This document shows, in pieces, positions 2,127 to 24,239 of a stretch of 32,000 nucleotides of DNA; the stretch's first letter is position 1; each line of letters opens with the position of its first letter. The position numbers were made by a program, and so were the translations under genes. The stretch spans positions 1,200,001 through 1,232,000 of the forward strand of contig NZ_CP036280.1 of assembly GCF_007748075.1 (NCBI RefSeq), given 5' to 3'. Below the pieces are notes generated by a model. It was not told the origin of the DNA and did no database searches. It saw only the letters and a program-made list of their open reading frames with translations. Source of the stretch: Mucisphaera calidilacus. Its GTDB lineage: Bacteria; Planctomycetota; Phycisphaerae; Phycisphaerales; Phycisphaeraceae.

Positions 2127-2835
2127 AAGAGGCCCTCTCCGTTACGGCTTTACGCTGATCGAGTTGCTTGTTGTGATATCGATCATAGCGTTGTTGATCG
2201 GGATTCTGTTGCCGAGTCTGTCGAGTGCCCGCGACGTGGCTCGTCGGCTCCAGTGCGGGACGCGGATCCGGACGCTGGGGCTGTCGCTGGAGTTGTACGC
2301 CCAGGACAACAAGGCGTACTACCCGCCTCGCGTGGTGGGGCCGGGCCAGCGTTGGCCAGTGCTGCTGTCGGAGTATTACGAGGTTCCTGACATGCTGGTT
2401 TGTCCGGCGGATGAATTTGAGCCGGGTATGGATGATGAGGGTAACGACACGTCGGATTTTGACGACATGCTCCGGAGTTACCTGATCAACGGATTCAACG
2501 ACATCGCGGTCGAGCGTGAGGGTGATCCGGGTGCCTGGAACTGGCCGAACTCGGTGGTCCGGCAGGCTGAGATCCCGAGTCCGGGGATCGTGATCATGTT
2601 TGGTGAGAAGCGTCAGGACGTGTTCCCGCACTTCTATATGGACATGCTGGAGCAGAACGGGAATGACCTGGACGTGGTGAACCACTCGCGGCATGGGGAT
2701 GCGTCGCGGAATCAAGGCGGGTCGTACTACGCGTTTGGTGACGGGTCGTCGCGGTTCCTGCCCTTTCCGGAGGCGTTGTCGCCGATCAACCAGTGGGCGA
2801 CGGTGAAGTCGTACCGTGAGGTGGCGATCGAGTAG
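2101..2835 (+). CDS. Prepilin-type N-terminal cleavage/methylation domain protein (DUF1559-like, type II pseudopilin-like)
   Basis: Contains the leader and cleavage motif RYG/FTLIELLVVISIIALLIGILLPSL. The C-terminal ...HSRHGDASRNQGGSYYAFGDGSSRFL resembles the H-x(n)-DG tail of planctomycete DUF1559 proteins. I placed the start at the ATG at 2101 (MSQPVRFVIRGPLRYG leader). The track ORF begins at 1969, but that would give an implausibly long leader. Confidence 0.8.
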   Translation: MSQPVRFVIRGPLRYGFTLIELLVVISIIALLIGILLPSLSSARDVARRLQCGTRIRTLGLSLELYAQDNKAYYPPRVVGPGQRWPVLLSEYYEVPDMLVCPADEFEPGMDDEGNDTSDFDDMLRSYLINGFNDIAVEREGDPGAWNWPNSVVRQAEIPSPGIVIMFGEKRQDVFPHFYMDMLEQNGNDLDVVNHSRHGDASRNQGGSYYAFGDGSSRFLPFPEALSPINQWATVKSYREVAIE

Positions 2836-2885
2836 GTTTGGGTCTCGGGTGGGAATAAAGCGGGTGGCTGCTCTATGGTTGTGGT

Positions 2886-4037
2886 ATGGGAAAGCGAATG
2901 CTTGTCGGAACGTTCTGTGTTGTCTTCATGATGCTGGTGGCGGGCTGTGTCGAGGGGGAGTCGGGTCCGCAGTCCATGTCTGAGAGGAATGAGGCTATGG
3001 CTTCAACGGTGATGGTGCGTGTGTTCAACAAGGATGGTGAGTTGGTGGGTCCGGTGTCTTCGGACCGGGTTGTGAAGTCGGATGAGCAGTGGGCGTCAGA
3101 GTTGCCGAGGCAGGTGTATGAGGTGACGCGTCGGGACGGTACCGAGCGGGCGGGGACGGGCGAGCTTCTGAACAACAAGGCGGAGGGCGTGTACAGCTGT
3201 GCCTGCTGCGGGCTGCCCCTGTTCCGGTCGGAGGCGAAGTATGAGAGCGGGACGGGCTGGCCGAGTTTCTACGAGCCGATTGCGGCGGAGAACGTTGTTG
3301 ACAAGAAGGACACGTCGCACGGGATGGTGCGGGTGGAGAACGAGTGTGCGCGCTGCGGGGCGCATCTGGGGCACGTGTTCCCGGACGGTCCGCGGCCCAC
3401 GGGGCTGCGTTACTGCATGAACTCGGTGTCGCTGGTGTTCACGCCTGCGGATGAGCTTGGGTCGCTGGCCGATCCTGCGGCGGAGGCACCGTTGCTGAGA
3501 TCGGCGGTGTTCGCGGGTGGCTGCTTCTGGTGCACGGAGGCGGTGTACGAGCAGCTGGAGGGCGTGCACGAGGTGGTGTCGGGGTATGCGGGCGGTGAGG
3601 CTCGGACGGCGAACTACGCGCAGGTGTCGGCGGGGCGTACCGATCACGCGGAGGTGATCCGGATTACGTATGACCCGGCGGTGATTGATTACGCGATGCT
3701 GCTGGAGGTGTTCTTCACGGTGGCGCACGACCCGACGCAGCTGAATCGTCAGGGTCCGGACGTGGGGCGTCAGTATCGTTCGGCGGTTTTCTACCAGTCG
3801 GAGGAGGAGCGGGCGCGGGTTGAGGCGTACATCGAGGAGCTAGAAGCGTCGGGGCGTTTTGGTGATCCGATCGTGACGACGCTGGAGCCGCTGGAGCAGT
3901 TTTATGCGGCGGAGGCGTATCACCAGGATTTCGTAGAGCAGAACCCGATGCAGCCTTACGTTCGTCAGCAGGCGTTGCCGAAGGTGGACAAGGTTCGTCG
4001 GAAGTATGAGTCGCGTCTGAAGGGCGTGGGTCAGTAG
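2886..4037 (+). CDS. msrAB: Bifunctional peptide-methionine sulfoxide reductase, MsrB-MsrA fusion, predicted lipoprotein
   Basis: Has a lipobox (MMLVAGC). The MsrB part has two CxxC pairs (CACCG, CARCG) and the GLRYCMNS catalytic motif. The MsrA part has [13 protein letters not shown] and HAEV motifs. Confidence 0.92.
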
Positions 4038-9252: not shown

Positions 9253-11619
9253 TTAGCCGAGGGTGACGGGCGCGGACTTGAGTCCGGTGAGTTTGCCGCC
9301 CGTGAGCGTCCATCGGTGTTCGCGGAGGTTGAGTTCGCGTTGGTCGTCGTCGGTTCGGAGGGTGATGGTGTCCTTGTTGCCGTAGGTCACGAAGCGGACT
9401 TTGAGCTTGCTGTAGGCGAAGTCGGCGTCGCGGAGTGTCACGGTGACGTGGTTGTTCTTCCGCTGGACGTCGAGGGTGATGGTGGTGCGTTCGCCACGCT
9501 GGTAGGCGTAGGAGAGGCCGTCGTCGGCGGCGTAGGTGCAGGTTGCTTTGCCCTTGAAGTCGGGGCTGAGGAAGAGGTGGAGTTCGATGTCGGCGAGGTC
9601 GGTGTGGTTGTCGGTGGGTGTGCCGGGGCGCATGGGGATGACGGCGCCGTCGCGGATGAAGAGGGGTGTGGTTTCGTCGTCGGGTTTGGCCTTGATGGTG
9701 CGGTCGCCAGCGATCCACCGGCCGGTGCGTGCGTCGTACCAGTTGGCCTTGGGGAGGACGATGTCGCGTGGGGCGGGTTCGGATTCGAGGTGGGGTGCCT
9801 GCATGATGGCGGGGCCGACCATGAACTGGTCTTCGATGCGGTCGAGGGGCAGTTTTGCCTTGTCGGCGAAGTCGTAGAAGAGGGGGCGGAGGATGGCCTC
9901 GCCGGCGGCTTCCTGCTGGACGAAGAGGTTGTAGAGGTAGGGCAGGAGCTTGTAGCGGAGTCGGATATAGTGGCGGGTGATGCGGGTGACTCTGGCGTTG
10001 AAGGCGTAGGGTTCCTGGTGGCGTTGTCCGCGGTGGGTGTGGTTGCGGAGGACGGGGAAGAGGAAGCCGGCCTTGTACCAGGCGATGGCGAGTTCGGGGC
10101 TGGCGTCGCCGCCGAAGCCCGGGACGTCGGGGCCGTTGAAGGGGAGTCCGGAGAGGGCGAGGTTGAGGGTGGTGGGGATGGCGGTCTTGAGGTGGTGGTC
10201 GTTGGCGTAGTTGTCGCCCGTCCACGCGGCGGAGTATCGGCTGGAGGAGATGTAGCCGCTGCGTGTGAGGATGAAGGGTCGCTGGTCGGGGGCGTGCTTG
10301 AGGAATCCCTCGTGGGTGGCCTTGGCCATGCCGAAGGCGTACTGGTTGTGGTAGGCGTCGTGGGGGAGTTTGCCGTCGTCGAAGAGCATCTCGCTGTTGA
10401 CGGATGCTCCGGTGGAGGGGTCGTTCATGTCGATCCAGACGCCCTCGATGCCTGGGGTGGCGACGGCCTTGGCGATCCAGCCGGCCCACCACTCGCGGGT
10501 GCGGGGCTGAGAGAAGTCGGGGAAGACGGTGGTGCCGGGCCAGACGAAGCCGACGAAGTCGGTGTCGGCGGGGTTCTTGCAGTAGACCCCGGCGCGTTTG
10601 CCGGACTTGTAGACGTCGTACTTGGTGTCGAGTTTGACGCCCGGGTCGATGATGGGGATGACGCGTTGGCCGTTGGCCTGGAGCTTGTCGATCTGCGCCT
10701 CGAGTCGTGGCCAGTGTTTCTGGTCCCAGGTGAAGACGCGGAAGCCGGTCATGTAGTCGATGTCGAGCCAGAGGCCGTCGTTGGGGATCTTGTGCTTGCG
10801 GAGTTGCTGGTCGACCGTGTCGAGGTCTTTGAAGCTGGCGTAGCCCCAGCGGCACTGGTGGTGGCCGAGGGACCAGAGCGGGGGCAGGGGCGTGGTGCCG
10901 ACGAGTCGCTGGAGTTTGCGTGTGAGGTCGGCGAGGGTGGGGCCGACGATGAAGTAGATCTCGGGTCGGCCGTCGGGCGCACCGACGAAGAAGCGTGTGC
11001 GTGTGTCGTCGTCGGCGTCGGACTGTCCGGCGATGTTGATTCTGGGGTTGGTGGACATGAAGGCGGCGTAGGGGTTGTTGAGGAGGATGCCGATGTAGTC
11101 GTTGCCGCGTTTGACGATGAGGTAGGGGATGGAGAGGTACATGGGGTCGGGCTGGCCGTGGATGACCTGCATCATGTTGAAGTCGGCCCAGACGTCGGTG
11201 TTCCAGAACTTGGTGTGGATGCCTGAGAGTTCGAGCCCGAGGACTTTCTCGCCCATGCCGTAGAAGCGCATGTCTTTGTTGAATGCGAACTGCATGAGCC
11301 ATGACTGGCCCGAGACGCCGAGGACGCGTCCGGGTTCGGAGGTGAGGAGGGTTTCGCCGTCGGGCGTGTTGAGCGTGACGCCATACTTCGGGTCGAAGTC
11401 GGCGGAGGAGGGTTCGTCGGTGTTGAAGTCGGCGGTGAGTTCGGCCTGGCTGTGCTGCGCGGGCCAGCGTCGCTCGCGGAGTTCGAGTCGGTGGACGTTC
11501 TCGCCGAGGTGCTTCCAGTTGTAGCGGAAGCTCTTGCCGTCGATGGCGATCTGGGGTGCGTTTCGTTTGTCGTGGTTGAAGACGAAGTTTTCGGGCTGGT
11601 GGGTCTTGTTGAAGTACAT
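9253..11619 (-). CDS. Glycoside hydrolase family 31 alpha-glucosidase
   Basis: 788 aa. Contains the GH31 nucleophile motif GVWIDMNDPS, then WTGDN and a conserved C-terminal beta-sandwich region. No signal peptide. Confidence 0.92.
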   Translation of the reverse strand: MYFNKTHQPENFVFNHDKRNAPQIAIDGKSFRYNWKHLGENVHRLELRERRWPAQHSQAELTADFNTDEPSSADFDPKYGVTLNTPDGETLLTSEPGRVLGVSGQSWLMQFAFNKDMRFYGMGEKVLGLELSGIHTKFWNTDVWADFNMMQVIHGQPDPMYLSIPYLIVKRGNDYIGILLNNPYAAFMSTNPRINIAGQSDADDDTRTRFFVGAPDGRPEIYFIVGPTLADLTRKLQRLVGTTPLPPLWSLGHHQCRWGYASFKDLDTVDQQLRKHKIPNDGLWLDIDYMTGFRVFTWDQKHWPRLEAQIDKLQANGQRVIPIIDPGVKLDTKYDVYKSGKRAGVYCKNPADTDFVGFVWPGTTVFPDFSQPRTREWWAGWIAKAVATPGIEGVWIDMNDPSTGASVNSEMLFDDGKLPHDAYHNQYAFGMAKATHEGFLKHAPDQRPFILTRSGYISSSRYSAAWTGDNYANDHHLKTAIPTTLNLALSGLPFNGPDVPGFGGDASPELAIAWYKAGFLFPVLRNHTHRGQRHQEPYAFNARVTRITRHYIRLRYKLLPYLYNLFVQQEAAGEAILRPLFYDFADKAKLPLDRIEDQFMVGPAIMQAPHLESEPAPRDIVLPKANWYDARTGRWIAGDRTIKAKPDDETTPLFIRDGAVIPMRPGTPTDNHTDLADIELHLFLSPDFKGKATCTYAADDGLSYAYQRGERTTITLDVQRKNNHVTVTLRDADFAYSKLKVRFVTYGNKDTITLRTDDDQRELNLREHRWTLTGGKLTGLKSAPVTLG

Positions 11620-12370: not shown

Positions 12371-13243
12371 TTAGTATGTGAGCCAGATCTTGTGGTGATC
12401 GCGTATGTAGTCGGCGACGTTTCGCGGCGGCCTTTTCAGAAGTCGTTCGAGGGTTGGGTCGATCTGCTCAGCATCGCCTTTTCGCAGGCCTAGGTGCAGC
12501 CATGTCTGGATGACAGCGTGCAGGAATGATTGTCGTCGTCTGGACAGCAGGTGAAAGAGGTAAGGTAGTGTGCCGGCGGGTTGGTATCGTATGGTTTGTT
12601 GGAGTTCTTCGATCAGGATGGCCGCGACTTCGTCGAAGGAGAAGGCCTTGGGGCCGGTCAGTGAATAGGCACATCCGTGGTGTGTGTCGGGTTCGCGGAA
12701 GATTGCTGCGGTCAGATCGCCCAGATCGTGAAGATCGATGAACGCCACGCGTCCCGAACCGGCGGGGACGTAGAGACGATTGTCCTGTCGGATATCGTTC
12801 AGATAGGCGTCCTGCAGGTTCTGTGCGAAGAAACCGGGCCGCAAGATGGTCCACGGGCATGGCGATGCCATCAGGTGCTTTTCGGTTTTGTGATGGGGGA
12901 TGTGGGCGTTTCGTTCGGCTCCGAGGACGGAGAGAAAGACGATGTGGGGCGAGGCGATCCCTGCTGCACGGTCGATGAAGGGATTGAGCGTGTGAGAGAC
13001 GTTGGAGACCGCGGGTGGTCTGAGCAGGAAGATGCCCGAGCAGCCGCAGATTGCCTGATCCCAGGTTTGCGGGTCCATGAGATCGAGTCGGGTGACCGAG
13101 ACGGTGTCGGGCAGGCAGGCACGGGCACGGTCGGGGTTGGAGGTCGCGGCGCGGACGGGATGACCGTTCGCCAAGAGCGCCCGAACAACCTCTCGTCCGG
13201 TGTTGCCCGTGGCTCCGGTGACCAGAATGGTGTCTGGGTGCAT
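12371..13243 (-). CDS. NmrA-like / atypical SDR NAD(P)-binding protein
   Basis: N-terminal Rossmann motif ILVTGATGNTGREVVRALL; length and layout are typical of the NmrA family. GC looks somewhat lower than the neighbours by eye. Confidence 0.85.
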   Translation of the reverse strand: MHPDTILVTGATGNTGREVVRALLANGHPVRAATSNPDRARACLPDTVSVTRLDLMDPQTWDQAICGCSGIFLLRPPAVSNVSHTLNPFIDRAAGIASPHIVFLSVLGAERNAHIPHHKTEKHLMASPCPWTILRPGFFAQNLQDAYLNDIRQDNRLYVPAGSGRVAFIDLHDLGDLTAAIFREPDTHHGCAYSLTGPKAFSFDEVAAILIEELQQTIRYQPAGTLPYLFHLLSRRRQSFLHAVIQTWLHLGLRKGDAEQIDPTLERLLKRPPRNVADYIRDHHKIWLTY

Positions 13244-13248
13244 GTGAA

Positions 13249-13322
13249 TGGGCGAAGCAGGACTCGAACCCGCGACATCTTCCTTGTAAGGGAAGCGCTC
13301 TAGCCAACTGAGCTATTCGCCC
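13249..13322 (-). tRNA. tRNA-Val (anticodon TAC)
   Basis: The minus-strand sequence GGGCGAATAGCTCAGTTGGCTAGAGCGCTTCCCTTACAAGGAAGATGTCGCGGGTTCGAGTCCTGCTTCGCCCA folds by hand into a cloverleaf. It has a 7-bp acceptor stem, GCTC/GAGC D stem, CTTCC/GGAAG anticodon stem with loop CTTACAA, and a GTTCGAGTC T-loop. CCA is not encoded. Confidence 0.93.
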
Positions 13323-13393: not shown

Positions 13394-13822
13394 ATGAAGA
13401 CGGCAACGATCGAGACGAACAAGGGCATCATCACGCTGGAGTTGTACGACGACAAGACGCCTAAGACGGTGGCGAACTTCGAGAAGCTGGCTGGCGAGGC
13501 TTACTACGACGGCCTGAAGTTTCACCGTGTGATCGAGGATTTCATGATCCAGGGCGGCTGCCCGAAGGGCGACGGCACGGGCGGGCCGGGGTACACGTTC
13601 GAGGACGAGTTCCACCCCGACCTCAAGCACGACGGTCCGGGCGTGCTGTCGATGGCGAACGCGGGGCCGAACACCAACGGCTCGCAGTTTTTCATTACGC
13701 ACGTCGAGACGTCGTGGCTGGACGGCAAGCACTCGGTGTTCGGGCGTGTGACCGAGGGGCAGGACGTGGTCAACGCGATCCAGCAGGGCGATGAGATCAA
13801 GAAGGTGACGGTGAGCTCTTAA
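13394..13822 (+). CDS. ppiB: Cyclophilin-type peptidyl-prolyl cis-trans isomerase (cytoplasmic)
   Basis: Contains [31 protein letters not shown] and HSVFGRV motifs. No signal peptide. Confidence 0.95.
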
Positions 13823-13823
13823 A

Positions 13824-14615
13824 CTATGATGTACTTGGCCTACTCTTCTCCAAAGCCGTTAATACGGCGAACAAGTCCTTAATGCAATTAAGAGCCATAT
13901 CTTTATCTATGCTAGATAGCTGTTTTCCATGAAGAATATTATTGCCGATTTCTCTAATTCGTGTTGCTGCATCAAAATCTTTCTTTGGCAATCGCTTCGT
14001 GAGTCTCGCCGCCTTGATGCGATCCGCCAAGTCAACAAATCGCTTGCCTTCTCGCCATTTCTTGAAGTTGCGTAGCGTAATCTCGCATGCATCGGAGGGT
14101 ATTTCAGCCTGCATCTCTACATCAAGAACAGACCTACACATCGCTATACATTCAGGGTAAAGTGACCAGAGATAGCATCTCGTAACCCGGTTTATGTAAC
14201 GCTTGGATTTGCGTGAATAGCTGGTGTCGTTGGCCAAATTTAGTAACGTAAAAATCTCATTCTCTGCCTCCTCGAATGTCTCAAGAAATTGCATGCCCAG
14301 CGATTGCAGTATCGCGCTTCTTGCATAAAGCATGTCGTCAACGCCAGAATCACCAGAAATCATGATTGAAGTTAAAATCTCTTTAAATGACCCTGTCTTC
14401 GGCGTTTCTAGCGTATGGCTACTTCTGAATAAATCAGCAATCCACTCTTCGATCTTCTGGATATTTATTTTGGCAGCCTCATAGTCAATTTTGCAAGTAC
14501 TTGCATAACGATCAATTTTATCACTCCTGTACTGGTCAAGAGCCATATCGAATGCATGGCTCACAGGTGTAAAATCATGGCCACCAAATGGATAATCTGT
14601 GTAGTCATCATTCAT
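13824..14615 (-). CDS. Orphan low-GC protein with DUF4145-like (HEPN-related) C-terminal domain; N-terminal ~140 aa unknown
   Basis: 263-aa ORF in the only AT-rich segment of the window. Its ATG overlaps the folA stop (ATGAATGA). The C-terminal pattern is CIAMCRSVLDVEM...ADRIKAARLTKRLP...ATRIREIGNNILHG...ALNCIKDLFAVLTAL. The domain call is from memory of the family signature, not from a search. Confidence 0.65.
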   Translation of the reverse strand: MNDDYTDYPFGGHDFTPVSHAFDMALDQYRSDKIDRYASTCKIDYEAAKINIQKIEEWIADLFRSSHTLETPKTGSFKEILTSIMISGDSGVDDMLYARSAILQSLGMQFLETFEEAENEIFTLLNLANDTSYSRKSKRYINRVTRCYLWSLYPECIAMCRSVLDVEMQAEIPSDACEITLRNFKKWREGKRFVDLADRIKAARLTKRLPKKDFDAATRIREIGNNILHGKQLSSIDKDMALNCIKDLFAVLTALEKSRPSTS

Positions 14616-15105
14616 GGCTCATGCGACTCCTTCTCGTGACAGTAAAACCTATCTCATGCCGCTCATCCACCGGATGCTCCATCAGCACCTCATGGTTCCA
14701 CCCGCTGAAATCAAACGCCGACAGCACCACATCTCCCTCCACCTCCGCGTGGACCACCGTCTCGTAGACCCGATCGGCCATCGGGAACGCCTCGGCGAAC
14801 AGCCCCGCGCCGCCGATGATGAAGACTTCCTCGTCGGTGTCGCGGTAGGGGGCGAGGGCGTCGTCGAGGGTTCGGCGGGCGGTGATGCCGGGGAAGGGGA
14901 AGTCGGGATTTCGGGTGAGGACGATGTTGGTTCGGCCGGGGAGGACGGCGTTGTGGTCTTCGAAGGTTCTGCGTCCCATGATGATGGGGTGGCCGAGGGT
15001 GGTGCGTTTAAAGTGTCTGAAGTCTTCGGGGAGGCGCCAGGGGAGCTTGCCGTCGCGTCCGATGACGTGGTTTTCGGATCGGGCGTAGATGAGGGAGAGG
15101 ATCAT
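14608..15105 (-). CDS. folA: Dihydrofolate reductase
   Basis: MILSLIYARSENHVIGRDGKLPWRLPEDFRHFKRTTLGHPIIMGRRTFE...IIGGAGLF...VHAEVEGD aligns by eye along the full length of E. coli FolA. The 3' third has a different codon style (see findings). Confidence 0.93.
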   Translation of the reverse strand: MILSLIYARSENHVIGRDGKLPWRLPEDFRHFKRTTLGHPIIMGRRTFEDHNAVLPGRTNIVLTRNPDFPFPGITARRTLDDALAPYRDTDEEVFIIGGAGLFAEAFPMADRVYETVVHAEVEGDVVLSAFDFSGWNHEVLMEHPVDERHEIGFTVTRRSRMSHE

Positions 15106-15114
15106 GTGGCGGTT

Positions 15115-15909
15115 TCAGACGGCGACGGGTGCCTTGATGTGGGGGTGGGGGTTGTAGTCGAGGAGGGTGAAGTGCTCGAAGCGGAAGGCTTCGAGGGATC
15201 GGATGTTGGGGTCGAGTGACATGCGTGGGAGGGGGCGGGGTTCGCGGGTGAGTTGCTCGCGGGCCTGGTCGAGGTGGTTGAGGTAGAGGTGGGCGTCGCC
15301 GAGGGTGTGGATGAAATCGCCGGGCTGGAGGTCGGTGACCTGGGCGATCATGAGGGTGAGCAGTGCGTAGCTGGCGATGTTGAAGGGGACGCCGAGGAAG
15401 ATGTCGGCGGATCGCTGATAGAGCTGGCAGCTGAGTTTGTTGTCGGCGACGTAGAACTGGAACAGTGCGTGGCAGGGTGGGAGTGCCATCTGGTCGATCT
15501 GGCCGGGGTTCCAGGCGCAGACGATGTGTCTGCGGGAGTCGGGTGCTTTGCGGAGCTGGGTGACGACGTCGCCGAGTTGATCGACGGTGGTTCCGTCGGG
15601 TTTGGGGAAGGATCGCCACTGCCTGCCGTAGACGGGGCCGAGGTCGCCTTGGTCGTCGGCCCACTCGTCCCAGATGGAGACGCCGTTGTCCTTGAGGTAG
15701 CCGATGTTGGTGTCGCCGGCGATGAACCAGAGCAGCTCGTGGATGATGGAGCGGAGGTGGAGTTTCTTGGTGGTGACGAGGGGGAAGCCTTCGGCGAGGT
15801 CGAAGCGCATCTGGTGGCCGAAGACCGAGCGTGTTCCGGTTCCGGTGCGGTCGGTCTTGACGGTGCCCTCGTCGAGGACGTGTTGCATGAGGTCGAGGTA
15901 CTGGCGCAT
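15115..15909 (-). CDS. thyA: Thymidylate synthase (ThyA type)
   Basis: [38 protein letters not shown] aligns from residue 1 of E. coli ThyA and gives 264 aa. Also has the PPCH active-site region ([13 protein letters not shown]). The track ORF extends to 16068, but that 53-aa extension has no ThyA counterpart. Confidence 0.95.
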
Positions 15910-15972
15910 AGAGTTATTTATCATGGATACAAGCGATGCAGCCATTCGCTCTGGATAACGCTCTGCAGAACA

Positions 15973-15990
15973 TGTTGTCGGGTGACAACA
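15973..15990. promoter_or_regulatory. Perfect 7-bp inverted repeat TGTTGTC-GGGT-GACAACA in the thyA / nuoA divergent region
   Basis: Read directly from the sequence. It lies in a roughly 190-bp lower-GC spacer between thyA (start 15909) and the likely nuoA start. It could be an operator or a chance palindrome. Confidence 0.2.
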
Positions 15991-16097
15991 GCGACCTGAA
16001 TGATCGTTGGTCATGTGGATTGGGTGTGGGAATGCTGTCGCCAACTGGCGCAATGATGTCGGCAGCATTCGAGTTGGATCTCGGTATACTCTTGGCC

Positions 16098-16507: not shown

Positions 16508-18217
16508 TTACCTGGATGCCGGTCCGAGCAGTTGATCGACCCTGCGGAAGGTGTAGCCGCGGCGGCGGAGTTCGTCGATGAGTGTGCCGAGGTGGCGGTA
16601 CATCTTGTCCTCGCGCTGGCCGCCGAGGTGGAGCAGGAGCAGGTGGCCGTTGAGTCCTGTGGGTGATTCGGCCTCGTGGGTCAGGATGTCGTCGAGCATC
16701 TGGTCGGAGCTTCGGAATCTGGGGTGGGATTCGGGCATCCAGTCGCGGTGGGATCCGGTGCCGATGGTGAAGTTGAAGAGGCGGAGGCCCATGTCGTCGG
16801 CCCAGTCGGCGTGCTGCTGGTTGTACCACTCGTAGGGCGGGATGAAGAAGATGGGTTGGCCGGCTGCGCCGCCGAAGGCCTGGAGGTCTTCGATGTTGCG
16901 GTTGAGGTCGTGGGTGAACTGCTCGCGGGTGACGAGGGAGGTTGAGCGGTCATCCCAGGGAGCGTAGAGCAGGTGTGCGTGGGAGTGGGGGCCGAGGTAG
17001 TGTCCTTCGTCGACCATGCGTCGGAGGAAGGGGTGGTGTTCGGTGATGGCGGTGTAGTCGCCTGTGACGAAGAAGCCCGCGGGGACGTTGCGATTTTTGA
17101 GGGTGTCGAGGATGTGCTGTGAGCCGTCGCCATGCTCGCCGGCGGTGAAGATCAGGGCGAGCGCGGGCTGTGTGGGGTCGCCTCGGACGATGCCTCCCTG
17201 GACGATCTCGAATCGGCTGGCGTCGGGCGGGGTTTCGAGGGCGACCTCGGCGATCAGTTGTCGGATGGCCGTCTGGGTTTCGGGTTCGTCGGCGTAGTAG
17301 CGGACGTCGCGCGGCTGGATGGTGAAGTTGCCGGGGTGTTCGGTGAGGGTGTAGTGGGTGCCTTCGAGCGTGCGTGTGTCGAGGGTGTCGTCCTGATCGA
17401 TGACGCGGAGGCGTTTCTGGTCGCGCCAGGTGCGCAGGGCCTGCTTGGCGCCTTCGGTGTCGCCGGTGGTGTAGAGCCAGTAGAGCAGTCCGGTGTCGGT
17501 GTAGGGGGTGCCCATGAGGATCTGCTTGGCGTAGAAGCCGGTGTCGGCTTTCATTTCGGGCGTGAGGTCCTGCCAGGTCCCGCCGGGCGGCGGCTTGGCG
17601 AGGACGGATCGTGTCCAGTCGTGGCTCTGGCCGATCTCGCCGGTGACGTAGGGTTCGAGCCAGAAGTAGCGTTGGATGGCGTAGGGCGAGCGTTGCCCGA
17701 GTTGTTCGTAGGAACGCTGGATGTAGTCGATGATCATCATGGCCTGGACGTCGGGGTGGTCGCGGCAGAAGTCGTTGACCTGTGCGGGTGTCCAGTCGGG
17801 CTGGATGCCGTAGGGCGGCCCGTAGGTTTCGCGGATGTTGCGGACGGTGATCTGCCATGGGCCGATGGTGGTCTGGCCGATCATGTCGGCGGTTTCTTCG
17901 GCGGTGGTGCGTCCCCATCGTTTGTCGGGGTCGTTGAAGAGGATGAAGCCTTCCTGGAGGGCGTGGGCCCAGAGGTCCTCGAGGCCGACGAGGTTGCCTT
18001 CGCCGGCGGCGTGTTTTTGTAGGAGGGCCTCGTAGGCGACTCTGAGGATGACTTGTCCGCCGGGGCCGTAGCGTGTGTCGCCGATGTTGTTGCTGATGCG
18101 TTGGTAGCGGGTGTCGAGGTCGGGCGGGGTGGTGGTCATGTGGGTGGTCGTTGTGGCCGAGCAGCCAGTGAAGAAGAGGATGAGGAGGAGGATGAGTCGT
18201 GGTGATGCGTGTGTCAT
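16508..18217 (-). CDS. Lipoprotein with uncharacterised N-terminal domain and C-terminal CE4-type polysaccharide deacetylase domain
   Basis: Start placed at ATG 18217 (MTHASPRLILLLILFFTGCSATT, signal plus lipobox-like FTGC). The C-terminal region IFTAGEHGDG...VPAGFFVTGDY...GHYLGPHSHAHLLY...FFIPPYEWYN resembles the NodB-homology deacetylase subfamily with an HSxxH motif. The track ORF (to 18808) adds a P/S/T-rich extension that overlaps the next gene out of frame. Confidence 0.8.
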   Translation of the reverse strand: MTHASPRLILLLILFFTGCSATTTTHMTTTPPDLDTRYQRISNNIGDTRYGPGGQVILRVAYEALLQKHAAGEGNLVGLEDLWAHALQEGFILFNDPDKRWGRTTAEETADMIGQTTIGPWQITVRNIRETYGPPYGIQPDWTPAQVNDFCRDHPDVQAMMIIDYIQRSYEQLGQRSPYAIQRYFWLEPYVTGEIGQSHDWTRSVLAKPPPGGTWQDLTPEMKADTGFYAKQILMGTPYTDTGLLYWLYTTGDTEGAKQALRTWRDQKRLRVIDQDDTLDTRTLEGTHYTLTEHPGNFTIQPRDVRYYADEPETQTAIRQLIAEVALETPPDASRFEIVQGGIVRGDPTQPALALIFTAGEHGDGSQHILDTLKNRNVPAGFFVTGDYTAITEHHPFLRRMVDEGHYLGPHSHAHLLYAPWDDRSTSLVTREQFTHDLNRNIEDLQAFGGAAGQPIFFIPPYEWYNQQHADWADDMGLRLFNFTIGTGSHRDWMPESHPRFRSSDQMLDDILTHEAESPTGLNGHLLLLHLGGQREDKMYRHLGTLIDELRRRGYTFRRVDQLLGPASR

Positions 18218-18244: not shown

Positions 18245-18286
18245 AAAAAACGTCAAGCCCCGGCTGCCGAGGCAACCGAGGCTTGA
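18245..18286 (-). terminator. Putative rho-independent terminator after the PEP-CTERM protein gene
   Basis: On the minus strand: TCAAGCC(TCGG)...(CCGG)GGCTTGA stem followed by CGTTTTTT. It lies between the stop at 18318 and the next start at 18217. Confidence 0.45.
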
Positions 18287-18317
18287 GTTGGGTGGGGGGC
18301 GATCTTGTTTGAACGGA

Positions 18318-19088
18318 TCAGGCGTTGCGGCGGAGCGCCGTGATGCCAAGGAGTGTGAGTCCTGCGGCGAAGGCGGCGGGCGTCGGGACGGGGGCTGCGG
18401 TGGTGACGGTGTTGAAGTCGCCGTCGGCGAGTTGAGCGGGTTGGTTGAGGTTGTTGCCGATATTGCCGGCGGTGAAGGTGCTGGCGGTGACGCCGATGAA
18501 TTCATCGGATCGGAAGGCGTTGTTGGGGTTGAGGTAGGTGACGATGAAGTCGAAGGAGTCGCCGAGGCTGAGCCCGATCTGTGTGAGGTCGAAGGCGATG
18601 CCGAAGGAAGGATCGGAGGCGTCGCGTGCTCCGTCGGTGCTGACGCCTGCGACGAAGGCGTGGTTGGCGGGGTCGGCGCCGATCGCGAAGAGACCGGAGA
18701 AGGCTGTTTCGATGGTGATGGCGTAGTCGGCCTCGAAGGTGGCGGCGAAGTTGAGGTGGCTGGTCTCGTCGCCGAAGCCCTGCCCGCTGATCGCGGCACG
18801 TCCGCCATCGGCGGTGTCGGTGAGGCCCGAAGTGGAAGCGACGCCGCCGGCGACGGCGTCGATGTAGATGACGGCGGTGTCGTTGAGGGTGCCGGATCCG
18901 CGGTTGAGCGTCATGGCGACGAGGCCCGCGGGGGAGACGTTGACGTCGAGGGTGGCTTCGGAGCCGATGACGTTGCCGAATCCGCTGCTGACGCCCGCGG
19001 CGGTGCCGGTGGTGTTGATGATGATCGGTTCGGCGCAAGCGGTGGCGGCCAGAGCTGCACAGAGCATGCCGGATGCGATGATTTTCAT
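18318..19088 (-). CDS. Secreted protein of unknown function with PEP-CTERM-like anchor
   Basis: Has a signal peptide (MKIIASGMLCAALAATACA) and a Gly/Ala/Thr-rich body with no recognised domain. The C-terminal VPTPAAFAAGLTLLGITALRRNA is a PEP-CTERM variant (VPTP, TM helix, basic tail). Confidence 0.8.
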   Translation of the reverse strand: MKIIASGMLCAALAATACAEPIIINTTGTAAGVSSGFGNVIGSEATLDVNVSPAGLVAMTLNRGSGTLNDTAVIYIDAVAGGVASTSGLTDTADGGRAAISGQGFGDETSHLNFAATFEADYAITIETAFSGLFAIGADPANHAFVAGVSTDGARDASDPSFGIAFDLTQIGLSLGDSFDFIVTYLNPNNAFRSDEFIGVTASTFTAGNIGNNLNQPAQLADGDFNTVTTAAPVPTPAAFAAGLTLLGITALRRNA

Positions 19089-22499: not shown

Positions 22500-24239
22500 T
22501 TAGAAGGCGGCGTTCTTGAATCGCTTGCGCAGCCTGCTGCGGAGCGCGATGGCGAGGATGTTGAGGACGGCGACGATGAGGATCAGCAGGAGTGTCGTCG
22601 TGTAGACCATGGGGCGTGCGGCTTCGGAGTTCTGGCTCTGGAAGCCGAGGTCGTAGATGTGGAAGCCGAGGTGCATGAAGCTTCGGTTGATGCCGAACTG
22701 CTCGGAGGGCGAGAGGCTCAGGGGCAGCTCGGGGGCGAGTTTGACGGCGCCGACGATCATCAGCGGCGCGACCTCGCCGGCGCCGCGAGCCATAGCGAGG
22801 ATGGTGCCGGTGAGGATGCCGGGCATGGCTCGGGGCAGGACGATGCGTTGGATGGTCTGCCACTTGCTGGCGCCGCAGGCGTAGGAGCCTTCGCGCATGG
22901 AATTGGGTACGGCGGCGATGGCTTCCTCGGTGGCGACGATGACGACGGGGAGGGTGAGCAGGGCGAGTGTGAAGGAGGCCCAGATGAGGGCGCCCTTGCC
23001 GAAGGTGGGGTTGGGCAGTTTCTCCGAGAAGAAGATCTCGTCGATCTGAGCGCCGAGGATGTAGCAGAAGAATCCGAGTCCGAAGACGCCGAAGACGATG
23101 CTGGGGACGCCGGCGAGGTTGTTGATGGAGATGCGTACGGCGCTGACGACGAATCCGGCCTTGGCGTATTCGCGTAGGTAGAGGGCGGCCATGACGCCGA
23201 AGGGCACGACGAGGACGCACATGATCATGGTCATGAGGACGGTGCCGAAGATGGCGGGGAAGACGCCGCCCTCGCTGTTGGCCTCGCGCGGGTCTTCGGT
23301 GAGGAACTCGATCCAGCGTCCGAGGTAGACCGAGAGCTTGTCGGCGGTGGTGAGCTGGTTAGCGGGTACGACGCGGACGACGTCCATGAGGCGTATGGCG
23401 GCCTCGTCTCCGTCGGAGGTTTCGAGCACGAGGGTGTAGATGTCGGCGCTGTCGCGGATGTTGGCGATCTGCTGCTTGAAGTCGAGGATTCGGGTGTTGA
23501 TGTCGGCGACGGTCTGGTCGAATTGCGCCTGTGCCTCGGCGGCCTGCTGTTCGCTGGCGGCTTCGCGCAGGGTTGCGTTGAGTTCGAGGCGGGCGCGTTC
23601 CTGGGCGCGGGTGAGCGCGGCGATGTCGTCGCGTTCGATGGAGCGGATGTCGTCGCGCAGGCCGATGACGCCCGGGAGGAAGGCCTCGACCTGATCGATC
23701 ACGGGCTGTCGGCCCTCGGCGACGACCTTGCCCTCGGATTCGAGTCGGACGGGGGTGCCGTAGAAGCGCCCCCACTCGAGCCGCTCGATGAGGACGGCCT
23801 GCTCGGGGTAGGTCTGGCGGGTGACCTGATCGCCGAAGACCCAGTTGAAGTGGGCGTTGGTGCGTTCGTAGTTGCCGGTGCGTACGAGGGCGCGTTTGAG
23901 GTAGCCGTTCTGCTTCTGAGCGGACGCGGTGGCCTGATCGCGGACTTCCTCGGGCAGCTGGTTGAGCAGCTGGTCGTTGATCCGGATGCGTTCGTTGCGT
24001 GTGACCTGGCCGAGCAGGGTGGTCCCGTCGCTGAGTTCGAGCTGGGTGATGGGCATGGGCCAGAAGGTGATCATGCCTCGGAAGAGGACGAGTCCGAGCA
24101 GCCAGGCGACCATGACGAGGGCGAGGGTGAGTCCGCCCGCGGTCAGCCAGACCATGGGTTCGCCGCGCGAGAGCAGCGAGCTCATGGCGTGGTGGGCGCG
24201 TTTGCGTTTCGCGGCGGCCTGGCGTGCTTCCTTGCTCAT
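22500..24239 (-). CDS. pstA: Phosphate ABC transporter permease PstA, long form with ~265-aa extracytoplasmic insert
   Basis: The C-terminal permease core contains the EAA-like region ([32 protein letters not shown]). There is an N-terminal TM helix, then a long hydrophilic insert including a coiled-coil-like segment. Operon position is between pstC and pstB. Confidence 0.9.

Follow-up and report, generated by a model that had tools for sequence, protein, structure and literature searches.

The window, by which we mean the whole 32,000-nt stretch of the Mucisphaera calidilacus Pan265 chromosome analyzed here, contains a dihydrofolate reductase gene, folA, that is followed by a low-GC gene. 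This locus raises the question of how an essential gene came to be written in two codon styles next to such a neighbor. A first-pass annotation, made by reading the codons by eye, had proposed that the style flips from C-ending to G-ending at about 14809, and that the 3' third of folA arrived with the low-GC gene on a recombination tract from a genome in which the locus faced the other way relative to replication. Our analysis supports the conclusion that folA is recombinant and derives its 3' third from a genome with the locus facing the opposite way with respect to the strand bias. We also consider it likely that this last third and the low-GC gene were recently imported together, as a ~1 kb patch from a related bacterium.

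folA changes codon style at codon 100

In this lineage, 70-95% of four-fold degenerate sites are G on one strand. folA (14608-15105, minus strand) encodes a protein of 165 aa that matches Pfam DHFR_1 with E=1.3e-49. Its codons 1-99 (14809-15105) end in C 79 times, in G 5, in A 13 and in T 2, which is the style of the other minus-strand genes of the window. Third positions in codons 100-165 are C 14, G 35, A 4 and T 13; within these, codons 100-150 (14659-14808), still at ~64% GC, have G 31 and C 11. The earlier hand counts agree exactly with these values. The maximum-likelihood changepoint for G versus C lies before codon 100, at position 14808 (LLR 33), and none of 5000 permutations gave a ratio as high. 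Restricting the count to four-fold degenerate codons, which removes amino-acid effects, gave 48C/0G before the breakpoint versus 6C/22G after it (Fisher p=5e-14).

Nothing else in the window resembles this switch. None of the 4158 sliding windows of 66 codons in other minus-strand genes came near the value of the folA 3' part (maximum -0.29 vs +0.57). When the scan used corrected gene calls, only one strongly inverted stretch stood out from 25 genes and 8043 windows, namely the 3' part of folA (minimum -0.71); the next-lowest value, -0.17, lay inside the low-GC gene. Two further candidates, 18275-18808 and 22747-23358, were over-extended ORFs in the wrong frame and were gone once the real genes were used. 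The GC skew of the plus strand is negative from ~13820 to ~14840 and +0.3 to +0.6 on either side, as anticipated from the excess of C over G that had been read from 13824 to about 14810. A local inversion is impossible as the cause of the flip because the reading frame of folA continues unbroken. We also rejected selection on codon usage, since a relative with folA on the same strand, L004, has C-ending codons at the same positions.

The AT-rich character of the last folA codons is real as well. A GC changepoint at nt 448 of folA (window ~14658), 50 nt ahead of the stop, separates DNA with a GC fraction of 0.64 from DNA with one of 0.41 beyond it. The tail that follows (codons ~150-165 and the stop, 14608-14658, minus strand) is the start of a low-GC block (~41%) that continues through the neighboring gene (13824-14615, minus strand, 263 aa). 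This gene, which we also call the cargo, is an orphan with a match to Pfam DUF4145 (E=7.6e-7, residues 148-246). Its GC content is 42.5%, and it has no strand bias (four-fold sites G19/C17). GC3 of the folA tail is 0.44, compared with 0.71 for the tail of relative L001 and 0.60 for that of L004. At 33-47% nucleotide identity it is a good match to none of the relatives, and it still codes for the last DHFR strand (GFTVTRR).

The two parts of folA have different closest relatives

We compared the two parts of folA with those of L001, L003 and L004 using codon positions 1 and 2, which are free of the third-position bias. The N-terminal part is 94% identical to L004, 89% to L001 and 87% to L003, and codons 100-150 are 70% identical to L004, 90% to L001 and 89% to L003. 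Thus, the native segment, codons 1-99, has L004 as its closest relative (88% aa identity; 72% at codon position 3), and the imported segment, of Mucisphaera-like origin, has 82% nucleotide identity to both L001 and L003 and 55% to L004. Neighbor-joining trees built separately for the two parts were incongruent: in 76% of bootstrap replicates the N part grouped with P0004, with or without P0002, and in 67-72% the C part grouped with P0003, P0004 never being its nearest neighbor.

A MaxChi test on the triplet window/L004/L003 gave 61.3 for all sites, with a breakpoint at folA nt 286-300, and 18.5 for codon positions 1 and 2 alone. Neither value was reached in 10000 permutations, and using L001 as the donor proxy led to the same outcome (chi2 52.5). 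The last L004-specific site is folA nt 286 (window 14820) and the first L003-specific site is nt 300 (window 14806). Between them lies the crossover interval (14807-14819, minus strand), a 13-nt stretch, TCATCGGCGGCGC, that is identical in the window, L004 and L003 and codes for part of the conserved IIGGA motif. An exact run of 34 nt across the joint is common to the window and L003. Breakpoint test, trees and composition together bear out the proposal that folA contains a recombination tract.

The C-terminal part of L004 FolA is unusually divergent, at most 59% identical in amino acids to every relative, and the contrast in these relatedness tests is therefore inflated; the compositional evidence for the mosaic is independent of L004. 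A search for a second replacement in the L004 C-terminus yielded no alternative donor (best 59% aa), so recurrence of such replacement is unproven. Codons 100-150 carry 8 changes specific to the window, one of them G>C, and 16-17 changes lie on the L001 and L003 branches. From these 8 private changes it follows that the segment has not been ameliorated.

Judged from its sequence, the chimeric DHFR appears to be intact. FolA matches DHFR_1 with 168 bits over residues 3-159 (model 2-157 of 159), and an alignment of 44 homologs has 32 invariant columns, with residues on both sides of the joint among them. A strict scan of species-representative genomes with 8-residue FolA peptide patterns returned only distant DHFRs of 38-52% identity. 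The sole match to VVHAEVEGDVV in a scan of metagenome DNA, L031, was a chance occurrence inside an unrelated repetitive protein.

The slot between folA and the PPIase gene varies among relatives

The window and L004 have a colinear block of at least 13 kb, pstCAB...nuoA-thyA-folA-PPIase, on the C-rich strand; in L001 and L003 this block is on the G-rich strand. folA of L004 is C-ending throughout (N part 40C/8G, C part 20C/3G) and thus serves as a model of a resident 3' end on the C-rich strand; folA of L001 and L003 is G-ending throughout. The closest matches to codons 100-150 are therefore genomes of the type and orientation that had been predicted for the donor, with the locus reversed relative to the strand bias. 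Their existence is a third independent line of support for the recombinant, next to composition and relatedness.

Upstream of folA, its native operon partner thyA (15115-15909, minus strand; Pfam Thymidylat_synt, E=2.9e-125) is fully C-ending (four-fold sites C122/G9). We set its start at 15909, where homology to the 264-aa ThyA of L001 and L003 begins, and for the same reason rejected a longer ORF to 16068 as over-extended. On the other side, the slot is bordered by a conserved core gene for a cyclophilin-type PPIase (13394-13822, plus strand; Pfam Pro_isomerase, E=9e-50), which is transcribed toward folA in L001, L003 and L004 and whose product is 82% identical in amino acids to that of L001. 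The thyA-folA...PPIase arrangement is common to these three genomes and the window. The slot is empty in L001, holds a low-GC methyltransferase gene in L003 and a gene for a 299-aa protein in L004, and contains the DUF4145 gene in the window. In L003, too, the low-GC DNA starts within the folA tail, with no skew flip elsewhere in that folA.

At the far junction (13777-13823), the stop codon of the orphan gene (TAG, 13824-13826) is 1 nt from that of the PPIase gene (13820-13822). Within the final ~45 nt of the PPIase gene (13777-13822), 10 sites are donor-like and 3 native-like, a difference that is not significant by MaxChi (p~0.085), and this piece may be part of the imported tract. Upstream of ~13777 the gene is native and L004-like. 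We rejected the PPIase gene as a whole as a member of the island, since its weak skew is explained by a preference for C-ending codons common to all the relatives.

Probable import of a single patch

In the reading we favor, a patch of ~1 kb (roughly 13.8-14.8 kb) of a related bacterium's DNA would have recombined recently into the Pan265 chromosome. The donor would have had its pst...thyA-folA-PPIase block on the G-rich strand, as in L001 and L003, and a low-GC gene for a DUF4145/HEPN-like protein already attached to the 3' end of its folA. On the left, the crossover would have fallen in the 13-nt run coding for IIGGA, the best-conserved DNA in this half of the gene and, by proxy, the one place there where alleles of the donor and native types would be identical over such a length. 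The right junction would lie at most ~50 nt from the PPIase stop codon. Under this scenario, the native 3' third of folA would have been replaced rather than displaced, leaving a chimeric DHFR that is still intact and, downstream of it, an added gene on the folA transcript, with AGGAG and ATG supplied within the last folA codons. The patch would be visible because it has not yet experienced the exceptionally strong strand-specific mutational bias of its new location. What the data show is a mosaic with its breakpoint, the type and orientation of the donor, a tract that has not ameliorated and no trace of a mobile element; beyond this we infer one event for both layers of the patch, how the DNA entered, what kind of joint lies on the right and what the cargo gene does.

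The imported folA segment and the orphan gene are adjacent, both un-ameliorated and probably coupled in translation, yet they form two compositional layers (64% vs 41% GC). Joint arrival is the simplest reading of this arrangement, if an unproven one, and the linkage of folA and the orphan gene would already have been present in the donor. Because G-ending DNA at 64% GC gives way to DNA at 41%, at least two transfer events are needed somewhere, in an order and at places that the data do not fix. Further points count against this reading. The sampled genomes closest to the tract share only ~82% of its DNA sequence, the cargo protein has no match above 34% identity, and the right-hand junction reaches only p~0.085. 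The two types of folA allele, donor and native, are ~25-28% apart in DNA, a distance at which exchange driven by RecA works very poorly in model systems (PMC6382021).

It is also conceivable, if unlikely, that two unrelated events struck one spot, namely a gene conversion of the folA 3' part by a relative's DNA and a separate illegitimate insertion of low-GC DNA over the last ~16 folA codons, in which case the orphan gene would not have come in with the folA piece. The sharp difference between the layers at folA nt 448 fits this explanation, as does the fact that the folA-PPIase slot has gained unrelated cargo independently in relatives, including L003, where low-GC DNA begins within a folA tail that follows an unflipped remainder. 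However, it needs two recent, un-ameliorated events to abut exactly by chance and a homeologous folA patch to have been fixed with no obvious benefit of its own, and both layers are equally little adapted to the local bias.

The first-pass annotation had further suggested that the orphan gene may move by way of folA homology, which we regard as conjecture. In its extended form, folA would act as a portable homology arm in a serial transfer of single cargo genes across lineages of differing GC, a reading that we hold to be quite improbable. folA would then be a nested mosaic of three layers, with native codons 1-99, a relative's codons 100-150 and a low-GC tail whose ~16 codons were brought along by the cargo from a source of low GC with a folA of its own; the L003 cargo, which starts within the folA tail, would be a second instance. 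If this were true, a gene that is essential and universally conserved would offer its 3' end as a recurrent landing pad that needs no recombinase. Among three distant homologs of the orphan gene checked in their genomic context, none adjoins folA, and linkage to folA thus finds no support as a trait of the family.

Many integrative elements that use a tRNA gene or the end of a protein-coding gene as their target supply it with a surrogate end. A site-specific cassette, or the remnant of an integrative element, aimed at the folA 3' end and bringing a surrogate for it would share with the tract an intact target gene with a foreign 3' end, cargo of differing GC and a site reused in relatives. Four slot states in four genomes (the window, L001, L003 and L004), the onset of foreign composition 50-68 nt within folA in the window and L003, the two genomes whose cargo is low in GC, and cargo that is a single gene without a promoter would all suit such an element. 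Nevertheless, we consider this origin very unlikely. The ORFs in or beside the tract encode DHFR, DUF4145, PPIase, NmrA-like and ThyA proteins, with no integrase or recombinase among them; no direct, att-like or inverted repeats bracket the tract; and tblastn and blastn revealed no displaced or second folA 3' fragment in the window. The low-GC cargo regions of the window and L003 have no boundary sequence in common, only chance 8-12-mers. In addition, the surrogate codons 100-150 carry the composition of a relative rather than that of the cargo, and the single nucleotide between the cargo and PPIase stops leaves no room for an attachment site. The tract is thus free of mobile-element signatures.

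Finally, an assembly chimera of two strains, which a short tract switching at a conserved motif where assemblers can cross strains might bring to mind, or local selection or mutation toward G-ending codons, is scarcely credible, since the host is an axenic isolate genome without plasmids, which makes chimeric assembly unlikely, native composition and synteny resume on both sides within 1 kb with reading frames intact, the signal extends beyond silent sites to codon positions 1 and 2, and the same codons of L004 are C-ending when resident on that strand.

Comparison with known exchanges

Import of a patch that ends in a core gene is a kind of event that is already known, made unusually visible here by the extreme strand skew. 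In pneumococcal capsule switching, breakpoints lie in the flanking pbp genes, and the exchange of accessory DNA leaves mosaic core genes behind; a hotspot model for accessory genes was reportedly set out by Oliveira et al. in 2017. As in such exchanges at hotspots flanked by core genes, the slot between folA and the PPIase gene varies among close relatives, the tract ends at a conserved stretch of the flanking core gene and creates a chimera, and mobile-element machinery is lacking. Here, however, the alleles are far more divergent (~25-28% in DNA, with only 13 identical nt where they meet), the cargo consists of one gene joined onto the core gene's end, and a crossover in the second flank, the PPIase gene, is no more than suggested (p~0.085, not significant).

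A second parallel is homology-facilitated illegitimate recombination (HFIR), whose description is credited to de Vries & Wackernagel (2002), Prudhomme et al. (2002) and Meier & Wackernagel (2003) in passages of PMC5361080 and PMC6382021. A comparable model has been proposed for how variable 3' gene regions and their downstream genes are replaced at T6SS and Rhs loci (PMC5361080). As in HFIR, the folA tract would have one end anchored in a homologous gene, with non-homologous cargo behind it and a far joint that is abrupt at a gene end. Unlike the anchor in HFIR, that of the folA tract would be homeologous rather than identical, and where the far joint in HFIR has 3-10 bp of microhomology, the tract may instead have a short homologous crossover in the end of the PPIase gene.

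The folA tract provides a clean case, resolved to the nucleotide, of the entry of an accessory gene without mobile-element machinery, in which a relative's DNA was joined into an essential gene at a conserved stretch of 13 nt with a foreign gene behind it. Because the strand-specific bias of the lineage is so strong, recent imports in the wrong orientation stand out at codon resolution. A genome-wide scan of Mucisphaera and its relatives for patches of inverted skew could therefore list recent recombination tracts and give their relative ages, and it would include tracts from close relatives that ordinary methods based on GC content or codon usage miss.

The orphan gene encodes a DUF4145/HEPN-like protein

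The reading frames of folA and the orphan gene share 8 nt, the start codon of the latter lying at 14613-14615, and an AGGAG motif resembling a Shine-Dalgarno sequence is present at 14627-14631, inside the folA tail. We found no terminator or promoter-like site between the two genes. From this arrangement, the orphan gene is probably co-transcribed and translationally coupled with folA.

A word-indexed search with the orphan protein found only the protein itself, with nothing above 34% identity among ~15 billion proteins. The best relative in an exhaustive HMMER search was 34% identical, and a profile search yielded 10 distant relatives. There were no matches in NCBIfam or in phage and plasmid collections, and a comparison with PADLOC gave 0 families at E<=1, so that the protein fits no PADLOC model of a known or candidate anti-phage defense protein. 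Its match to DUF4145 (PF13643) has 29.5 bits against a cut-off of 23.1.

The AF2 model of the protein (pLDDT 85.5) has an all-alpha, DUF4145/HEPN-like C-terminal half. HEPN proteins were the top Foldseek matches, at weak E values of 0.04-0.13, and a TM-score of 0.66 was reached only when normalized to the small target 2hsb. The motif R221-x7-H229 includes a nearly invariant N225, and R..GN..vH is kept across the protein's own family. In its Pfam match, this conserved motif and its structural neighbors, the protein resembles the DUF4145/HEPN superfamily. It differs in that 7 residues separate Arg from His where canonical HEPN proteins have Rx4-6H, in the weakness of the structural matches (best E=0.04), in an extra N-terminal helical half and in a conserved Cys-rich core. 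The orphan thus adds a member to a sparse HEPN-like family whose members are solitary genes amid housekeeping genes.

Results

GC skew in the window averages about +0.25, and four-fold skew, referenced to the plus strand, lies between 0.6 and 0.94 in 22 of the 25 genes, irrespective of gene direction. Because the strand asymmetry is so strong, the plus strand of long-resident DNA is rich in G. Genes on the minus strand are nearly pure C-ending, as in thyA (C122/G9 at four-fold sites), whose ORF as listed (15115-16068, 317 aa) is over-extended, the match to the relatives' 264-aa ThyA starting at 15909. The asymmetry, which is not mentioned in the Mucisphaera calidilacus species description (PMC8882080), could rank with the stronger replication-strand biases known. 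Of the 25 genes, 17 (about two thirds) are carried by the C-rich strand. The G-rich strand is usually the leading strand; if that holds here, most window genes would lie on the lagging strand.

Against this background, folA (14608-15105, minus strand) is a mosaic. Its 165-aa product matches DHFR_1 over the full length (Pfam, E=1.3e-49). Third positions comprise 79 C, 5 G, 13 A and 2 T in codons 1-99 and 14 C, 35 G, 4 A and 13 T in codons 100-165 (11 C, 31 G, 1 A and 8 T in codons 100-150). A maximum-likelihood changepoint in G versus C falls just before codon 100, at 14808 (LLR 33, with none of 5000 permutations as high). Four-fold degenerate codons, to which we restricted the comparison so that the contrast is free of amino-acid effects, give 48C/0G in the 5' part and 6C/22G in the 3' part (Fisher p=5e-14). 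The codon-style flip reported in the first-pass annotation is confirmed in every detail, its hand counts (roughly 80 C and 5 G, then about 31 G and 11 C) being exact. No equal-sized window in the other minus-strand genes (0/4158) has a value near that of the folA 3' tract. With corrected gene boundaries (25 genes, 8043 windows), no stretch but this tract is strongly inverted (minimum -0.71), the next lowest value, -0.17, lying inside the orphan gene. Two further 'inverted' stretches from the initial window-wide scan were rejected as over-extended, wrong-frame ORFs.

Judged by its FolA homologs, the host falls in the Phycisphaeraceae, adjoining Mucisphaera. The thyA-folA...PPIase arrangement is common to the window and to three relatives, L001 (MAG GCA_040222295.1), L003 (Mucisphaera sp., 3.25 Mb) and L004 (a Logan contig). 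L004 carries thyA-folA on the C-rich strand, as does the window, and its folA is C-ending throughout (four-fold sites 40C/8G in the N part and 20C/3G in the C part). In L001 and L003, thyA-folA lies on the G-rich strand, and folA has no flip, with G moderately exceeding C (four-fold G50/C28 and G49/C21, respectively). The block pstC-pstA-pstB...nuoA-thyA-folA-PPIase, colinear over at least 13 kb (65-87% aa identity), occupies the C-rich strand in the window and the G-rich strand in L001 and L003; therefore, an opposite-facing locus exists among the nearest relatives. Four-fold skew is 0.4-0.75 in L003 and L004 and weaker in L001.

We compared the window folA with each relative by codon alignment, taking codons 1-99 and 100-150 apart. 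Identity to L004 is 88% (aa), 94% (positions 1+2) and 72% (position 3) in codons 1-99 versus 51%, 70% and 25% in codons 100-150, a contrast exaggerated by the unusual divergence of the L004 C-terminal part from all homologs. The corresponding values are 85%, 89% and 44% versus 80%, 90% and 65% for L001, and 79%, 87% and 40% versus 80%, 89% and 69% for L003. Maynard Smith's maximum chi-square (window/L004/L003) places a breakpoint at folA nt 286-300 (chi2=61.3, 0/10000 permutations as high), with 50 native and 6 donor sites to its left and 12 native and 54 donor sites to its right. The result holds at codon positions 1+2 only (chi2=18.5, 0/10000) and with L001 as donor proxy (52.5, 0/10000). 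Bootstrapped NJ trees join the N part to homolog P0004 (with or without P0002) in 76% of replicates and the C part to P0003 in 67-72%; P0004 is never nearest to the C part. These results support the main reading of the first-pass annotation, that the tract was recombined from a genome in which this locus faced the other way.

The C-terminal third of L004 FolA (2817-3014) has at most 59% aa identity to every homolog examined, whereas for the N-terminal part identity to both the window and L001 is 88%. The C-terminal third is C-ending and hence resident; its divergence could reflect fast evolution or an old replacement tied to the gene in the L004 slot. The compositional evidence for the flip is independent of L004.

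The left joint lies within the 13-nt stretch TCATCGGCGGCGC (14807-14819), which encodes part of IIGGA, is identical across the window, L004 and L003, and is one of just two identity runs of at least 13 nt in folA between native and donor proxies. Two layers follow. The first (14659-14808) has high GC, G-ending codons and a relative-like sequence. The second begins at folA nt 448 (~14658), 50 nt ahead of the stop codon, where GC drops from 0.64 to 0.41. The last ~16 codons are AT-rich (GC3 of the tail is 0.44, versus 0.71 in L001) and still encode the terminal DHFR strand, GFTVTRR. The tail contains an AGGAG motif (14627-14631), with the ATG of the orphan gene (14613-14615) 11 nt downstream; there is an 8-nt overlap between the orphan frame and the folA stop. 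The convergent PPIase gene has its stop codon 1 nt from the 3' end of the orphan gene (13824-14615). The PPIase sequence upstream of about 13777 is L004-like and native; over its last ~45 nt, 10 sites are donor-like and 3 native-like, a lean below significance (p~0.085). We found no direct or inverted repeats bracketing the tract and no promoter-like or terminator-like site at the folA-orphan junction. Neither a displaced native folA 3' remnant nor a second folA copy is present within the window, and therefore the native end was replaced rather than pushed aside.

The import is recent: neither layer has measurably ameliorated under the bias by which neighbouring genes have come to exceed 90% C. 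With L001=L003 as reference, the window shows 8 changes of its own across folA nt 300-450, only one of them G>C, compared with 17 on the L001 branch and 16 on the L003 branch. Four-fold sites of the orphan gene are unbiased (G19/C17).

The folA-PPIase slot has four states in four close relatives and behaves as a local gene-gain hotspot. It holds the DUF4145 gene in the window (13823-14615), is empty in L001 (10492-10494, with the two stop codons 1 nt apart), and contains a methyltransferase gene (Methyltransf_21, 45% GC) in L003 (10490-11324) and a gene of native composition for a 299-aa signal-peptide protein in L004 (3015-4080). In L003, low-GC DNA also starts within the folA tail, ~68 nt before the stop (10421-11288, changepoint LLR 6), where GC3 is 0.38, upstream of a cargo unrelated to the window's. 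The cargo boundaries of L003 and the window have no sequence in common.

The 263-aa cargo protein matches DUF4145 over residues 148-246 (Pfam, E=7.6e-7). Searches of PADLOC, NCBIfam, phage genomes and plasmids gave no match, and a word-indexed search of 5.8 billion clusters returned only the protein itself. Exhaustive HMMER searching recovered 240 distant relatives (best 34% identity) of about 250-300 aa, which share a Cys-rich core, RVSRCYL...EC..MCRS, and a C-terminal R..GN..vH motif. C147, C160, R161, C177, R199 and H229 are invariant, and Cys156 nearly so, in a set that includes P0122-P0141. The AlphaFold2 model is confident and all-alpha (pLDDT 85.5); its nearest structures are HEPN domains (Csm6, AF_0298, HEPN-MNT toxins), weak matches with none at E<=0.001. 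Family members are solitary genes in unrelated housekeeping neighbourhoods. Of three distant ones checked in genomic context, one neighbours a DNA ligase, another ABC-transporter genes and an HTH gene, and the third is flanked by rho and an AsnC-like gene; folA is near none of them. We therefore call this uncharacterised family HEPN-like, possibly with a metal- or redox-linked core. By analogy with the superfamily, one might guess at a defence or toxin role.

Discussion

We propose that the putative donor was a related member of the Phycisphaeraceae with the block on its G-rich strand, in which the low-GC gene would have been fused to the end of folA before transfer. About 1 kb of donor DNA would then have been swapped in for the matching stretch of the Pan265 lineage. 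The left exchange point would fall where the DNA of the folA 3' half is best conserved; on the right, the sequences would have been joined either by homologous exchange over a very short part of the PPIase end or illegitimately, at the stop codon. The event would have been rare and then fixed, perhaps through a useful or selfish cargo. Donor-type and native-type folA alleles differ at ~25-28% of DNA positions. Work in model systems puts the required identity at about 9-15 bp for RecA pairing and about 25-35 bp for efficient exchange, and above ~15% divergence integration is rare and resembles homology-facilitated illegitimate recombination (PMC6382021); a rare short-homology event fits these benchmarks. 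For T6SS and Rhs loci, an HFIR-type model has been proposed for an analogous swap of variable 3' gene ends together with downstream genes (PMC5361080). The left joint would allow the earlier suggestion that folA homology is a candidate vehicle for moving the orphan; the three distant cargo homologs checked in context, however, show no linkage to folA.

The data show the mosaic with its breakpoint, the type of donor and how the locus was oriented there, the recency of the import, and a replacement that left no signature of an element. We infer one event for both layers, the linkage in the donor, the DNA entry route and the cargo function. Two independent events at one spot would be allowed by the two compositional layers; however, the layers abut exactly and a bare folA patch would bring no benefit, which makes this unlikely. 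A site-specific cassette or element bearing a surrogate folA end might account for the four states of the slot and for a low-GC onset within folA in two genomes (the window and L003), but with no recombinase, repeats, remnant or common boundary we consider it highly improbable. An artefact or a local effect other than transfer is scarcely credible, since the source, M. calidilacus Pan265 (CP036280.1; 3,486,541 bp, 63.9% G+C, no plasmids), is an axenic isolate (PMC8882080), making an assembly chimera unlikely, the signal extends to codon positions 1+2, and L004 is C-ending along its whole folA.

The tract, as a recombinational replacement, is a fresh instance of a well-known event, in which an accessory gene is gained through recombination in the core genes that flank it and a core gene is left mosaic. 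It is of interest mainly because strand bias, extreme in this lineage, serves as a built-in marker of recent imports, which could be exploited genome-wide.

Other genes of the window also deserve comment. The PPIase gene (13394-13822, plus strand) has a weak skew, 0.39, though native; its coding-strand skew is -0.75 in L001 and L003 and +0.32 in L004, which indicates that this gene has its own preference for C-ending codons, reinforcing the strand bias or working against it. The L001 colinear block lacks two genes of fully native composition that the window has between nuoA and the 178-aa/NamZ genes: a lipoprotein-type gene (16508-18217) and one (18318-19088) whose product carries a signal peptide and ends in a PEP-CTERM-like sequence. 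Immediately downstream of tRNA-Val(TAC) (13249-13322, minus strand) is an NmrA-like gene (12371-13243, also minus strand). Its GC (0.60) is lower and its skew (0.37) much weaker than in the neighbouring genes, and it may be an older, partly ameliorated gain at the tRNA gene.
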